Source of the DNA: Candidatus Saccharimonadota bacterium
GTDB lineage: Bacteria > Patescibacteriota > Saccharimonadia > Saccharimonadales > Saccharimonadaceae
Reading direction: 5' to 3'
DNA length: 32,000 bases
Assembly: GCA_000503915.1 (NCBI GenBank)
Contig: CP006915.1
Location: 660,001 to 692,000, forward strand
Below, in pieces: positions 181-21,925 of this stretch (positions are counted from its first letter, which is position 1; every line of letters starts with the position of its first letter). The notes beneath the pieces were generated by a model, which was not told the DNA's origin, did no database searches, and saw only the letters and a list, made by a program, of their open reading frames with translations. The position numbers were made by a program, and so were the translations under genes.

Positions 181-870
181 TTAAACAGCCGGGCTATATT
201 TCTTCATCTCGGCTCTAGAGGTTTTATAATTCGGACAGGCAGTCTCGACTAGCGACCAGAATGCTGATGAATGGTTCATCTCCTTGGTGTGAGCAAGCTC
301 ATGGATGATAACGTAGTCGATCAGCTCAAACGGTACCTGCATGAGCGCGATATTCAAACTAATAGTGCCGGTCGTACTGCAGCTTCCCCAGCGCGTACCA
401 GCATGACTGAAACGGAGCTGATTAAAACGGAAGCCGTATTGCTCGGCAAGATAACCAACACGTTTGGGCAAGTAGTGCTTCGCCTCTTTACGAAGTGCGG
501 CAATTGAAGCCTTGCGTACCTCATCGGTAACCTCGCGTGTTTGAAGCGCCTGGTCGCTAGGCACGGAAAGCCACAACTCCTGCCCGCTTTTCTTGAGGCG
601 CATCACATCGCTGGCTACTCGTATGCGGAGCCGGTGGCTTTTGCCGATTGGCAAGCCATCATATAATTCACGGTTTGGTCGGTTTTCGAGAAGACGTCGC
701 AGCTCACGGCGGGATGTGGCGATCATTCGTTTGATACCGAAAAGTGGTACTAGTCTGGGTGCGGAGATGCGCAGTTGCCCATTCGGTGCAACGGTCACTT
801 TCATCGATGCCCGTGACGACGTGCGGCGGATTATGATATCGCCGAACTCATCATCATGAACATGTGTCAT
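181..870 (-). CDS. YgjP-like M48-family metallopeptidase (DUF45)
   Basis: 229-aa ORF. The C-terminal motif DYVIIHELAHTKEMNHSSAFWSLVE (HExxH followed by NHS..FW) is typical of the YgjP/DUF45 family. Its start lies 2 nt after the stop of the upstream gene. Confidence 0.8.
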   Translation of the reverse strand: MTHVHDDEFGDIIIRRTSSRASMKVTVAPNGQLRISAPRLVPLFGIKRMIATSRRELRRLLENRPNRELYDGLPIGKSHRLRIRVASDVMRLKKSGQELWLSVPSDQALQTREVTDEVRKASIAALRKEAKHYLPKRVGYLAEQYGFRFNQLRFSHAGTRWGSCSTTGTISLNIALMQVPFELIDYVIIHELAHTKEMNHSSAFWSLVETACPNYKTSRAEMKKYSPAV

Positions 871-18955: not shown

Positions 18956-19201
18956 TTATGCAGCGACGCTTGGTCGCTCGTCTCGTAGGCGGAAGCTGAT
19001 TCGTCCCTTCGTGAGATCGTAAGGGGTCATCTCAACTTCTACCTTATCACCCGGTACCAGGCGGATATAGTGCTTGCGCATTTTGCCGCTGATGTGGGCG
19101 ATGATACTATGACCATTCTCCAGTTCCACCTTGAATTGGGTATTAGGCAGTGCTTCCACTACCGTACCTTGCATCTTAATTACTTCCTTTTGACTGGCCA
19201 T
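18956..19201 (-). CDS. infA: translation initiation factor IF-1
   Basis: 81 aa, with G.V.E.LPN..F.VELENGH...[27 protein letters not shown]. Confidence 0.95.
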
Positions 19202-19216
19202 AAATTACAATTGTTA

Positions 19217-19245
19217 ATTATACACGAAGAAGTGCCTAGCGTAAA
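19217..19245 (-). promoter_or_regulatory. infA proximal promoter (TTTACG-N17-TATAAT)
   Basis: Minus-strand read. The -10 box ends 15 nt before the infA ATG, and there is no SD in between. Confidence 0.5.
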
Positions 19246-19306
19246 GTGTTTTACAAGAGATTCTAACGTGAATTTTCTCACGCAGTGTTAGGTCGGATTA
19301 CATTCT

Positions 19307-19334
19307 ATTGTAGCGAAAATGATAATATCGTCAA
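19307..19334 (-). promoter_or_regulatory. infA distal promoter (TTGACG-N16-TACAAT)
   Basis: Minus-strand read. It is a near-consensus sigma70-type pair placed directly after the GC hairpin at 19343-19370. Confidence 0.5.
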
Positions 19335-19342
19335 GTTTGTAC

Positions 19343-19769
19343 GGGCGGGCGCTAATGAAAGCGCCCGCCCTTGTTGCCCTGAGTTTTTTGTCAACTTCGA
19401 TGTCCCTACGGAATGTGAGTACGAGACCCTGGGCGGTTACTCTGAGCTCACGCCATCTGATGTTTTCACATCCGTCAACCTCGAGCTTTAGGCTTGCGCC
19501 CGTGCTCGGCTCATCACTGCAACTTCAGGGCATTTCAACCCATACAGTAGGTGAGGTCACCGGGTATCTAATCCGGTAGCAGGAAGGCCAAGTATCCCAC
19601 CGTTTGAAGGATGTCAAACACTCCTTCAGGCCTAGATGAATGGAGTAATCCACTCACCGCCCTGCGATAGCTTTACGCCACCAATCTTGCGACCGCGCAG
19701 CACAGTTCTTTCGCAGACAGCAAACACTGTTTTTGGCATCCGCTACGGATCCTCCTTCCAGCGTTTGTT
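19343..19769 (-). ncRNA. candidate structured RNA of unassigned class (strand and ends provisional)
   Basis: The gene-bearing strand has no usable ORF. An extended -10 box lies at 19776-19784, followed by multiple hairpins, several with GNRA loops on the minus-strand reading. A terminal 10-bp G/C hairpin sits at 19343-19370. Details are in the findings. Confidence 0.35.
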
Positions 19770-19775
19770 GAGGCT

Positions 19776-19784
19776 ATTATACCA
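19776..19784 (-). promoter_or_regulatory. extended -10 box TGGTATAAT immediately after the sortase-like stop codon
   Basis: Minus-strand read: TAA-CCCTG-TGGTATAAT-AGCCTC. It has the same box type as the other promoters in this window. Confidence 0.45.
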
Positions 19785-19789
19785 CAGGG

Positions 19790-20473
19790 TTACTTACGGA
19801 CAGCACGGAGGATTGTACGGTAGCTATAGTCTGCATTTTTTGGCACCCAGTGACCACTTGACGTAATTACCGATAACCCTTCTTTAGTGTCATCGACGGG
19901 GTACATTGCCTGCGGGATGCCAGTCTTTAGTGCGTTTAGAGTCGGCATCTCGTGAACATCGTAGACAGTATAGGTAAATCTTTTACCGTCACCGCGCTCA
20001 AGCTTTATCACATCGCCTGTCTTTAGATCGGTAAGACGCGCTAGTACGCCGTTTCGCGCCTTGCCTCTACTATGACCATTGAGCACGACAGCTCCATAAT
20101 CTTGTCCCGGTTGCGCACTCTCGCTGTACCAGCCGACGTCGTCCAAATATTTAGGTTGTTCAAACTGACGGTGGCTGTCGAGCTTGATCGGAGTGATACG
20201 TGCGTTCTCTATGCCAAGCTTAGGGATCGAGAAGTAGCGTGGTTCATCAGCCTTGACAGTATAGTTCTTACGCTGCTCTTGACTCACCGGAGTCTCATTG
20301 ACGCTCGGGTCGGCAGAGGCTATCGGTAAATTAAACGGCAATTCGCCCGTGTTGTACCAACGAAGGCCATAGTAGCCGATGAGAATAATAAGGGCAAGAA
20401 ATATAAGACGTAAAATCCACCGCACTGGGCTAAAGCTACGTGTTTGTTTTATTTCTAGTCCCGTTGCCATCAC
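19790..20473 (-). CDS. membrane-anchored sortase-fold protein lacking the catalytic cysteine
   Basis: 227 aa with an N-terminal TM helix. It shows the class E/F sortase-like pattern: YFSIPKLGI...VGWY...PGQ.GAVVLNGHS...L..LK.GD.I......FTY.V. The expected L.TC.G site reads LSVITSSG, and the conserved Arg is present (YRTILRAVRK). The start is GTG at 20473 or ATG at 20470. Confidence 0.7.
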   Translation of the reverse strand: MMATGLEIKQTRSFSPVRWILRLIFLALIILIGYYGLRWYNTGELPFNLPIASADPSVNETPVSQEQRKNYTVKADEPRYFSIPKLGIENARITPIKLDSHRQFEQPKYLDDVGWYSESAQPGQDYGAVVLNGHSRGKARNGVLARLTDLKTGDVIKLERGDGKRFTYTVYDVHEMPTLNALKTGIPQAMYPVDDTKEGLSVITSSGHWVPKNADYSYRTILRAVRK

Positions 20474-20509
20474 AGGTTATTTTAGCACGAGCACTTTAGC
20501 TAGTAAACG

Positions 20510-21925
20510 CTACTTGTAGTCGTCGTAAGTGACCATCAGCGCCCGCGAGTTGATCTGTCGCAGGCTCTCGAGAGCCACTGATACGACGATCAGGATACCG
20601 GTGCCACCGATAGCCAGGTTGCTGTTTTGTACCCCAGCAAACTGATAAAGGATATACTCAGCGATATACGGCAGAACGGCGATGGCACCCAGTACGAACG
20701 AACCGAAGAGAATCAAGCGGTTCATAGTACTCGAAAGATATTTTTCGGTTTGCTCACCTGGCCTGATGCCTTCGATAAAGCCACCTTGTTTTTGCAGATT
20801 CTCGGCAATCTCGTTGGCATTAAAGACAATGCCGGTATAAAAGTAAGTGAAGGCGATCACAAGCAGAAAATACATACCAGGATAGATAAAGGCTTGCGCC
20901 GTACTGCCGGTAAACTGGCCAGGATTTGGCGTCTGAAACCAAGTGATAAGATTGTTGCCGATCTCAACGTAGTCAGCATTACCAGTAGCCTTTAGTACCT
21001 GTCCGATGAAGGCTGGCAAGCTAAGGAATGCCACGGCGAAGATGACGGGGATCACGCCGGCAGCGATCAGTTTCATCGGTAGAATACTTTTGACACCACC
21101 GTACGACGAGTTTCCCTGCACACGCTTGGCGTAATTGATCGTTACAACGCGCTGGGCTTCATTGATCTTTACGAGCAGGTACAAGACAGCCAGTGAGGCT
21201 AGCACGATCGCCAGGACGATCCAGAATGCCAGCGGGTTAATAGGTAGCTCAAACCAGCCGAAGACACTGAGGCCACCAGAAGACGTGTCAACGAGCGAAG
21301 CACCGATTGATTGCAGTGTCTGCGGCATCTGACTAACAATGCCGGCAAAGATCAGCAAGCTAAGTCCGTTACCGACACCTTGTTCGGTCATGATCTCACC
21401 GAGCCACATCAACAGAATCGAACCTGCAGTCATAGCACCAACGGCAACTACCCACTGCATTAGCGAGGTATGGTCGAGTGCCGTGGTAGTGTTGCCCGCA
21501 AGTACCGACTGACGCAGAATATAGACGAAGGCGATTGACTGCACCACGGCAAGTGGCACGGTAATGATACGTGTCCACTGCTGGATCTTACGTCGACCTG
21601 ACTCACCGTCTTTATGCAACTCCTCGAGCTTGGGTACGGCTTTTGTCAGTAGCTGCGTGATAACGCTGGCGGTAATAAATGGACTGAGGCCGACAAGGAC
21701 GACCGAGAAGCTAGCCAGTGCCCCACCGGATAATAAGTTCAAGAAGCCACCAAAATCGCTGCCACTGACAACGCTATTGATGACTTCTTTCATTTGAGCA
21801 GGCTCGGCGAGAGGTACGGGTATATGAGCCAGGAAGCGATAAATCACAACAAGACCGAGCAGCACCAGCAAACGCTTGCGCATATCGGTATTCTTCAGTG
21901 ATTTAATGATAGTTTTCCAGTTCAT
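20510..21925 (-). CDS. secY: preprotein translocase subunit SecY
   Basis: 471 aa with 10 TM segments. It contains LGI.P.IT and GG.I.GIRPG..T..YL motifs, and sits after rplO. Confidence 0.95.
   Translation of the reverse strand: MNWKTIIKSLKNTDMRKRLLVLLGLVVIYRFLAHIPVPLAEPAQMKEVINSVVSGSDFGGFLNLLSGGALASFSVVLVGLSPFITASVITQLLTKAVPKLEELHKDGESGRRKIQQWTRIITVPLAVVQSIAFVYILRQSVLAGNTTTALDHTSLMQWVVAVGAMTAGSILLMWLGEIMTEQGVGNGLSLLIFAGIVSQMPQTLQSIGASLVDTSSGGLSVFGWFELPINPLAFWIVLAIVLASLAVLYLLVKINEAQRVVTINYAKRVQGNSSYGGVKSILPMKLIAAGVIPVIFAVAFLSLPAFIGQVLKATGNADYVEIGNNLITWFQTPNPGQFTGSTAQAFIYPGMYFLLVIAFTYFYTGIVFNANEIAENLQKQGGFIEGIRPGEQTEKYLSSTMNRLILFGSFVLGAIAVLPYIAEYILYQFAGVQNSNLAIGGTGILIVVSVALESLRQINSRALMVTYDDYK

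Follow-up and report, generated by a model that had tools for sequence, protein, structure and literature searches.

Ribosomal RNA (rRNA) mimicry is known from the leaders of ribosomal-protein mRNAs, among them the S8 site in the spc mRNA, the S15 and S6:S18 leaders and L20_leader (RF00558), in which the rRNA copy binds a protein that normally binds the ribosome; these leaders are 5′ untranslated regions (UTRs) of the gene that they regulate and are co-conserved with it. Decoy small RNAs (sRNAs), such as 6S RNA, which mimics open promoter DNA, CsrB/RsmZ, and GlmY, a decoy of GlmZ, are abundant RNAs that resemble a protein's natural ligand and thereby titrate the protein. To our knowledge, Saccharibacteria, like the wider candidate phyla radiation (CPR), are almost without described non-coding RNAs, and our search of the literature on structured RNAs in this group found none. 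Here we report a candidate RNA element at positions 19343–19784 of a 32,000-nt stretch of contig CP006915.1 from a Candidatus Saccharimonadota bacterium (hereafter the window, meaning the whole stretch of DNA that was analysed; its DNA is identical to contig DPRQ01000015.1, assembly GCA_003537595.1). A protein encoded next to the gap described below is 100% identical to a hypothetical protein of Candidatus Saccharibacteria bacterium RAAC3_TM7_1. Like the leaders, the element would be a short rRNA copy located beside ribosomal genes.

The element lies within a gene-free gap of 588 bp (19202–19789), between a sortase-like open reading frame (ORF) and infA on the minus strand, and this gap most likely holds an undescribed, optional non-coding RNA. 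The best explanation of 19343–19784 (minus strand) is a putative stand-alone, non-coding, structured RNA gene belonging to a small family that has so far been found in Saccharibacteria only, always in the sortase–infA spacer; no description of it was found in Rfam or in the literature.

A sequence-only reading of the same DNA had described a 588-bp gap devoid of genes and of any minus-strand ORF of at least 60 amino acids, and both statements were borne out, with stop codons present throughout all three minus frames. Each structure that it listed was found where it had been placed, including the −10-type box right after the upstream stop (5 nt past the TAA) and the terminal G/C hairpin ahead of the infA promoter. 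Its naming of the spacer as secY–infA had to be corrected: the upstream gene is sortase-like (PF04203), and secY lies one gene further up. The parts of the element, from 5′ to 3′, are the following:

19776–19784 (−), extended −10 promoter-like box TGGTATAAT, read directly, starting 5 nt after the sortase stop
19581–19775 (−), variable 5′ domain of about 195 nt, hairpin-rich, folding well in this genome
19738–19750 (−), hairpin ATCCG-TAG-CGGAT, within the 5′ domain
19683–19694 (−), hairpin GGUC-GCAA-GAUU, within the 5′ domain
19605–19628 (−), helix UGAAGGA/UCCUUCA inside AGGCC/GGCCU, within the 5′ domain
19559–19577 (−), P1 hairpin ACCGG-AUUAGAUAC-CCGGU, with a 5-bp stem and a 9-nt loop, the best-conserved block
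19510–19555 (−), P2 helix CUCAcCuACUG/CAGUgAUGAG around the small hairpin GGGU-UGAAAU-GCCC, with compensatory changes
19483–19507 (−), P3, the GCAA-capped bulged hairpin GAGC-AC-GGGC-GCAA-GCCU-AAA-GCUC, part of the 35-nt GCAA helix at 19477–19511
19472–19478 (−), UUGACGG linker, read and aligned, like 16S nt 920–926 (start of helix 28)
19459–19472 (−), P4 hairpin GAUGU-GAAA-ACAUC, read directly
19415–19451 (−), P5 helix GUGAG/CUCAC around a variable hairpin, from comparison of the window with locus L017
19343–19370 (−), terminal 10-bp all-G/C hairpin, just before the infA −35

The minus strand folds at −178.4 kcal/mol, compared with −148.6 ± 5.6 kcal/mol in dinucleotide shuffles (z = −5.3, 0/100 shuffles as good), whereas the plus strand reaches z = −3.2, so that the hairpin density is above chance and the minus strand is favoured. 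The same strand had been preferred in the sequence-only reading, and the G-U pairs and GNRA loops invoked there are indeed exclusive to it. A homologue of the element from locus L014 folds with z = −4.0.

Relatives of the locus were collected by exact look-ups of the InfA and sortase-like proteins together with profile searches, yielding about 25 Saccharibacteria loci with the same secY–sortase–infA order; scans of genome and metagenome collections with the sortase protein returned distant relatives only, and the closer loci came from the exact-protein look-ups. The last ~130 nt before infA are conserved in all of the ~25 loci, and the rest of the spacer ranges from ~20 to ~800 nt. Homologues of the element occupy the same spot, directly downstream of the orthologous sortase gene, in L017, L018, L003 (at a contig end), L014 (= L024), L025 and L057 (= L058), which cover five lineages besides that of the window. 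L017 is 91% identical to the window across the 3′ 250 nt and unrelated in the 5′ half, and the L014 and L057 lineages carry sortases that are 36–39% identical to that of the window. L002 and L020 encode an identical InfA protein, yet have 27 nt where the window has 455 nt, and the element is also absent from L011 and L013, close relatives of the L014/L057 lineages. From this distribution, the element is either old or horizontally exchanged, and it is dispensable.

Mobile origins were considered and rejected. An insertion sequence or miniature inverted-repeat transposable element (MITE) does not fit an element with no second copy in the 32-kb window and with no terminal repeats or target duplications when its boundaries are compared with the empty sites of L002 and L013. 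A phage or plasmid origin was discarded because neither type of collection contained an element-like match (blastn, word size 11).

Two blocks stand out in the homologues. Block 1, GGA(U/A)UAGA(U/C)ACCC, corresponds to P1 and is present in all six lineages, and its stem covaries at the outer pair (A-U/G-C) and at the third pair (C-G/U.G/U-A). Block 2, GCACGGGCGCAAGCCUAA(A/C)GC, corresponds to the GCAA-capped P3 and is invariant in five lineages (window, L017, L014, L025 and L057), with a diverged equivalent in L018 only; the lower stem of P3 covaries as A-U/G-C. Both blocks are thus conserved between lineages whose flanking sortases share only 36–39% identity. A covariance model built from the window and L017 alone (R1; 169 positions, 38 pairs, no 16S information) retrieved L025 with 35.6 bits, L014 with 34, L057/L058 with 33.7 and L018 with 27 (E 1e-7 to 1e-10), and it gave no further matches elsewhere in the window, in the other spacers or in unrelated loci.

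When the family alone is aligned by fitting it to the model structure, standard pairs make up 91% of cells, and 13 pairs are changed on both sides, compared with 6.3 ± 1.7 after shuffling (0/500) and 1–5 in slid controls. A signal independent of that fit comes from the window and L017, in which four of the five stem substitutions make up two compensatory pairs and most differences fall in unpaired columns. Specifically, P2 shows one compensatory C-G to U-A change between these two sequences; its base is kept in L014 with an A-U to G-C change, and its interior is replaced in L014 and L057. P5 shows one compensatory U-A to C-G change along with one broken pair, and is weakly conserved in L014 and L057. 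By manual alignment, CCUGU...ACAGG occupies the place of P4 in L014 and L025, which would amount to two compensatory pairs, although the covariance-model alignment is shifted there. Conservation in related spacers, a comparison that the sequence-only reading had suggested, therefore came out in its favour: homologues sit at the same locus and keep their helices through compensatory changes.

The ends of the element recur as well. A TGnTAnAnT box is found 0–5 nt past the sortase stop in every homologous element (TGCTATACT in L017 and L018, TGATATAGT in L014, TGTTAAAAT in L057); the promoter scan leaves the window's box unlisted because it has no −35 hexamer, and its role as a promoter is putative. 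At the other end, the terminal hairpin, probably the element's 3′ end or its terminator, persists in L003, L017 and L018 with a stem longer by one G-C pair; L014 and L057 have an analogous G/C-rich hairpin, and all lineages carry such a hairpin shortly ahead of the infA −35. Unrelated sequence takes the place of the 5′ domain in L017 and L018, and the domain is nearly gone in L057. The UUGACGG linker is present in the window and L017, and merely similar, displaced strings are found in L014 and L057. Taken together, the earlier interpretation of a structured RNA on the minus strand, with a putative promoter of its own, is supported; the likeness of its core to 16S rRNA and its absence from close relatives are points that the sequence-only reading did not contain.

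The 9-nt loop of P1, AUUAGAUAC, is identical to the 790 loop of 16S helix 24 (h24), whose tip is likewise closed by G-C pairs, and a motif scan for P1 in the 25 Saccharibacteria loci, the window and E. coli 16S rRNA returned only the elements and 16S nt 782–800. Although it holds no 16S information, R1 aligns end to end with E. coli 16S nt 779–936 at 23.4 bits (E 5e-6 in a 100-kb search and 3e-7 in a 6-kb search), compared with a best score of 5.4 bits against E. coli 23S, 5S and rnpB. In this alignment P3 falls on 16S nt 888–912 (helix 27, h27, with the 900 loop), and the two share one layout: above the lower stem comes an internal loop rich in A, then a 4-bp stem capped by GCAA. Over 16S nt 779–926 the order and strand agree, with UUGACGG after P3 as in 16S rRNA (window and L017). 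In addition, the core (element nt 210–335) aligned locally to 16S nt 782–953 with a score above those of 300/300 shuffles. A kissing partner of the P1 loop was also sought in the window, where no complementary 9-mer was found and single 7-mer matches lie far off.

The element also differs from 16S rRNA. A short variable hairpin stands in place of h25–h26, the rest of 16S is missing, and the whole element measures only ~430 nt; its stems depart from those of 16S consistently, with CCGG/CUGG rather than CAGG and GGGC/GCCU rather than GGCC/GGUU. The element does not fit a bona fide 16S gene or fragment: it has no match to the small-subunit rRNA (SSU) model and no colinear similarity over its whole length. 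The idea of the whole element as a mini-16S was likewise abandoned: a cheap-gap chain gives z = 3.4, but ordinary local alignment is significant for the core only, and beyond the core the extra 16S matches of the relatives are scattered over both strands and do not keep the 16S order. Segments of the tail resembling h45 or the 3′ strand of h28 (p ~0.03–0.1) are not claimed. We claim only that the core resembles the tip of h24, h27 and the beginning of h28, not that the element is a miniature 16S.

Several observations weigh against a free-standing RNA that copies this part of the ribosome. Neither the 5′ domain nor the 3′ tail is conserved, and neither resembles 16S more than shuffles do. P1 alone contributes 12–14 bits, over half of the 23 bits of R1 against 16S, and an unrelated phage locus chosen for carrying P1 reaches 25 bits by aligning a tRNA arm. 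The 12-mer GGGCGCAAGCCU of P3 is also an exact match to h15 of E. coli 16S rRNA (nt 376–387), and the Rfam SSU model (RF00177) is not reported on 19150–19850 at E ≤ 10. As regards the covariation, the fit of the alignment to the model structure biases the pair count towards that structure, and the sample consists of six sequences from about three independent clades. No U tract follows the terminal hairpin, and the terminator scan lists no terminator there; the promoter, the 3′ end and a transcript of its own are predictions. Finally, the absence of the element from L002/L020, L011 and L013 means that it cannot be essential.

The sequence-only reading had left open whether the region is a strongly divergent known RNA or an undescribed one. 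The second option is supported, and the first is not. The plus-strand likeness to RNase P RNA that it had pointed out is real at the level of strings: the 14-mer GGCCTAGATGAATG at 19629–19642 is identical to E. coli rnpB nt 323–336, and upstream of it, in the same order as in rnpB, lies the 8-mer AAGGCCAA, equal to rnpB nt 248–255. However, the P4 strands of RNase P RNA, GAGGAAAGUCC and ACAGAACCCGGCUUA, both present in E. coli rnpB, are absent on both strands of 19200–19800, which agrees with the earlier decision not to call rnpB. RF00010 and RF00011 give no match on either strand, whether at the gathering score or at E ≤ 10; 191/300 shuffles score at least as high as the region in local alignment to rnpB; and the 14-mer, which lies opposite the 5′ domain, is absent from all of 60 loci other than those of the window's own genome and E. 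coli rnpB, and from every homologous element. RNase P RNA on the plus strand was ruled out by the missing P4 strands, the lack of a model match, the shuffle-level alignment and the unconserved 14-mer, and the likeness is a coincidence in a variable part of the element.

Other known families fared no better. Rfam reports four tRNAs only in the whole window, and 19150–19850, searched on both strands as had been suggested earlier, contains no match at gathering thresholds and no credible match at E ≤ 10. The strongest sub-threshold match, L20_leader at 19218–19382 (+), with 24.4 bits against a gathering score of 58.7, is treated as noise, being on the wrong strand for the genes and driven by the G/C hairpin alone. 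No transfer-messenger RNA (tmRNA) was found by ARAGORN, and the signal recognition particle (SRP), 6S, riboswitch and intron models gave no Rfam match, the L014 homologue having been tested as well; the sequence-only reading had likewise found no tmRNA ends, no SRP domain IV and no riboswitch cores. A six-frame Pfam scan with stops masked returned 0 families at E ≤ 10. A decayed adk, map or other gene was rejected on the basis of this empty scan and of the lack of a conserved frame in the relatives, in which other sequence stands in for the entire 5′ domain. A minus-strand ORF of 35 codons preceded by GGAGG (19632–19739) was also discarded, because it lies in the 5′ domain that is replaced in L017 and L018 and is therefore unconserved.

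It is thus extremely improbable that the gap holds a known RNA in strongly divergent form (RNase P, tmRNA, SRP, 6S) or the remains of a protein gene (adk or map, for instance). This account draws on the rnpB 14-mer and AAGGCCAA standing in the right order and on the fact that adk and map, whose usual place in bacteria is between secY and infA, are missing from there, but it is contradicted by the Rfam, P4, shuffle, homologue, ARAGORN, Pfam and reading-frame results given above. Within the reach of the tools used here, neither a known RNA family nor a protein remnant is left as an explanation.

What the undescribed RNA might do is suggested by its core. We consider it possible, at somewhat less than an even chance, that the element is an accessory sRNA, expressed from a promoter of its own, which mimics the h24/h27 surface on the platform of the 30S subunit and thereby titrates a factor binding there. 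Transcription would start from the extended −10 box right after the sortase stop and would run as far as the G/C-rich hairpin that precedes the infA −35. On the 30S subunit the neighbouring tips of h24 and h27 make up a single docking surface; by displaying a copy of it, the RNA would bind, and thus titrate or hold, something that usually docks at that place. The partner could be the dimethyltransferase KsgA/RsmA, IF3, RbfA or another assembly factor, or a small molecule that binds in the pocket, among which we make no choice. In a preprint combining cryo-electron microscopy of the KsgA–30S complex with mutational analysis, A790/G791 (h24) and C899–A901 (h27) are juxtaposed and jointly anchor KsgA, and the same h24/h27 region is remodelled for initiation-factor and 50S binding (doi 10.1101/2021.09.15.460497). 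A mimic of this surface would be the simplest explanation because the only invariant parts of the element copy those two tips. Because the element is optional, a role in modulation or protection is more plausible than a core function.

We regard it as very unlikely that the element is an rRNA decoy of episymbiotic Saccharibacteria, that is, a free copy of the 30S platform pocket (790 loop, 900 loop and G926 region) soaking up an agent directed at that pocket. The agent could be a biogenesis or initiation factor (KsgA, IF3) or a ribosome-targeting compound such as kasugamycin, edeine or pactamycin. The footprints of these compounds include A794/C795 and G926, and the compounds are made by Actinobacteria, on which Saccharibacteria live; the patchy, cassette-like distribution would fit an optional resistance or fitness trait. 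A decoy for the homing endonucleases of CPR rRNA introns was dropped, since Saccharibacteria are a reported exception whose rRNA genes mostly lack introns of the CPR type (PMC11270868).

The reading of the element as a functional, stand-alone RNA has to be set against a non-functional relic, in which a partial, internally deleted 16S gene copy would be decaying in an insertion-tolerant spacer. The colinearity of the core with 16S nt 779–936 favours such a relic, as do the presence of the element in some lineages and its absence in close relatives, the free replacement of the 5′ domain and of the P2 interior, and the unrelated cargo held by the same spacer elsewhere. Neutral decay would not, however, spare blocks, and the hairpin blocks are 100% identical despite the 36–39% identity of the neighbouring proteins and scrambled surroundings; recent substitutions within a clade are compensatory, all lineages share the same stem differences from E. 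coli 16S, the promoter-like box is conserved, and the genome is streamlined (845-kb contig). On balance, we find a relic unlikely. The element could instead be a cis-acting leader, with transcripts from secY–sortase or from the −10 box reading through the U-less hairpin into infA-rpmJ-rpsM-rpsK-rpsD and a ribosomal protein or initiation factor encoded there binding the rRNA mimic and controlling the read-through. rRNA mimicry is a hallmark of ribosomal-protein operon leaders (S8/spc, S15, L20 and others), the element lies immediately upstream of the IF1/L36/S13/S11/S4 operon, its terminal hairpin lacks a U tract, and the top sub-threshold Rfam match is L20_leader, though on the plus strand and driven by the hairpin. 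Against this, infA has a promoter and a ~130-nt leader downstream of the element that are conserved in all loci with or without it; the loci L002 and L020, with identical InfA, lack the element, so that there is no co-conservation with infA; and we know of no protein encoded downstream that binds the h24 tip together with h27. A leader role is, in our judgement, improbable.

A further possibility is that the element is exchangeable cargo, a cassette with an sRNA that recombination in the conserved flanks has carried from one lineage to another; its function would have nothing to do with the ribosome (serving, for example, defence or host interaction), and its likeness to 16S rRNA would be coincidental. 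The patchy distribution in two distant clades and the swapped 5′ domains of the window and L017 would agree with this, as would the small ORFs found in the same slot elsewhere, the further non-coding inserts there that share the −10 box and have a terminator, and the enrichment of the exact P1 hairpin among viral contigs (15 loci, compared with 5 and 3 for the controls), frequently next to tRNA or tmRNA genes. Yet neither terminal repeats nor target duplications, nor a second copy in the window, nor a phage or plasmid match accompany the element, and two independent exact matches to 16S hairpins that neighbour each other in the 30S subunit are hard to dismiss as chance. We hold a ribosome-unrelated cassette to be quite unlikely and retain the stand-alone structured RNA as the best explanation.

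Beyond the element, the sortase–infA spacer carries other inserts. Specifically, L004 (3188–3916) contains a 144-aa reverse-strand ORF in DNA of 60% G+C, L011 (2688–3404) a reverse-strand ORF of ~130 aa, L018 (3634–3963) a 109-aa forward ORF after the element, and L056 (1146–1382) a 78-aa reverse ORF; the ORFs of L004, L011 and L018, the three scanned, have no Pfam match. Unrelated non-coding inserts, each ending in a terminator hairpin, are present in L005 (3188–3460), L008 (1617–1960) and L006 (3194–3350), and those of L005 and L008 open with the same TGnTATAnT box. From these comparisons, the spacer behaves like an exchange slot for small cargoes inside the ribosomal-protein cluster.

The surrounding genes and the promoter that bounds the element downstream are arranged as follows:

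20510–21925 (−), secY, one gene upstream of the sortase-like gene
19790–20473 (−), sortase-like gene (PF04203), directly upstream of the gap, with its stop codon TAA at 19790–19792
19307–19334 (−), infA promoter TTGACG-16-TACAAT, found by the promoter scan, outside the element and setting its downstream boundary
18956–19201 (−), infA, downstream of the gap, followed by rpmJ, rpsM, rpsK, rpsD and rpoA

The proteins encoded downstream of the element include IF1, L36, S13, S11 and S4. The infA promoter is conserved in all Saccharibacteria loci examined, whether the element is present or absent, and together with its ~130-nt 5′ leader (19202–19334, minus strand) it shows 72–98% identity across these loci, even at ~40% sortase identity. 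This region holds two promoter-like sites, TTGACG-16-TACAAT and TTTACG-17-TATAAT, and may be a conserved regulatory leader. Neither adk nor map is present in 18956–21925 or in any of the related Saccharibacteria loci examined, and the sortase-like gene stands in their place. The catalytic Cys of the sortase TLxTC motif is missing in most lineages (the window and the orthologues in L002–L027 and L056–L058): the corresponding position reads VITSSG in the window, IIAPAG in L014 and IVSFSG in L005, and only L004 has ISCSG. The N-terminus MATGLEIK and one His are conserved, and the protein may be a pseudo-enzyme or may use another nucleophile.

P1-type hairpins were also observed in viral sequences. 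The exact hairpin CCGG-ATTAGAYAC-CCGG is found in 15 viral contigs (L033–L047), compared with 5 and 3 for two scrambled-loop controls; examples are L033 3449–3493, L044 5145–5181, L036 6175–6191, L038 390–406 and L042 7954–8000. Several of the stems extend well past the pattern, with covarying outer pairs (L033 compared with L044). Several of the hairpins have tRNA or tmRNA genes as neighbours: in L036 the hairpin precedes a tRNA by 40 nt, in L042 it immediately follows a permuted tmRNA, and in L040 it is embedded in a tRNA array. Downstream of the hairpin in L038, at 273–345 (minus strand), there is an unannotated tRNA-like sequence with the T-arm GGGUUCGACUCCC, a terminal CCA and an 8-bp acceptor-like stem, GAUCUAGC/GCUAGAUC, for which Rfam makes no call at the gathering threshold.

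The proposed RNA can now be placed among the described systems. In contrast to the situation in ribosomal-protein leaders, a hairpin and the promoter of infA itself stand between the element and infA, and close relatives can lack the element; we know of no leader that copies h24 together with h27. With the decoy sRNAs it would share the logic of an abundant RNA titrating a protein, although it has no sequence or structural relation to them and the object mimicked would be a ribosomal surface. If the element is transcribed, it would be a free-standing, optional mimic of the ribosome surface, in contrast to the known cases, in which the mimicry lies inside the leader of the regulated gene. If real, a free mimic would point to bacteria with very small genomes regulating or protecting themselves by titrating factors or drugs that bind the ribosome. 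The sortase–infA spacer, mid-way in the most conserved gene cluster of bacteria, serves as an exchange slot for different small cargoes. The two invariant hairpins define a short RNA suited to binding assays, which makes the claim directly testable. Thus, rRNA mimicry by mRNA leaders and titration by decoy sRNAs are known already, and what would be new here is a free-standing, optional RNA that copies the h24/h27 surface.

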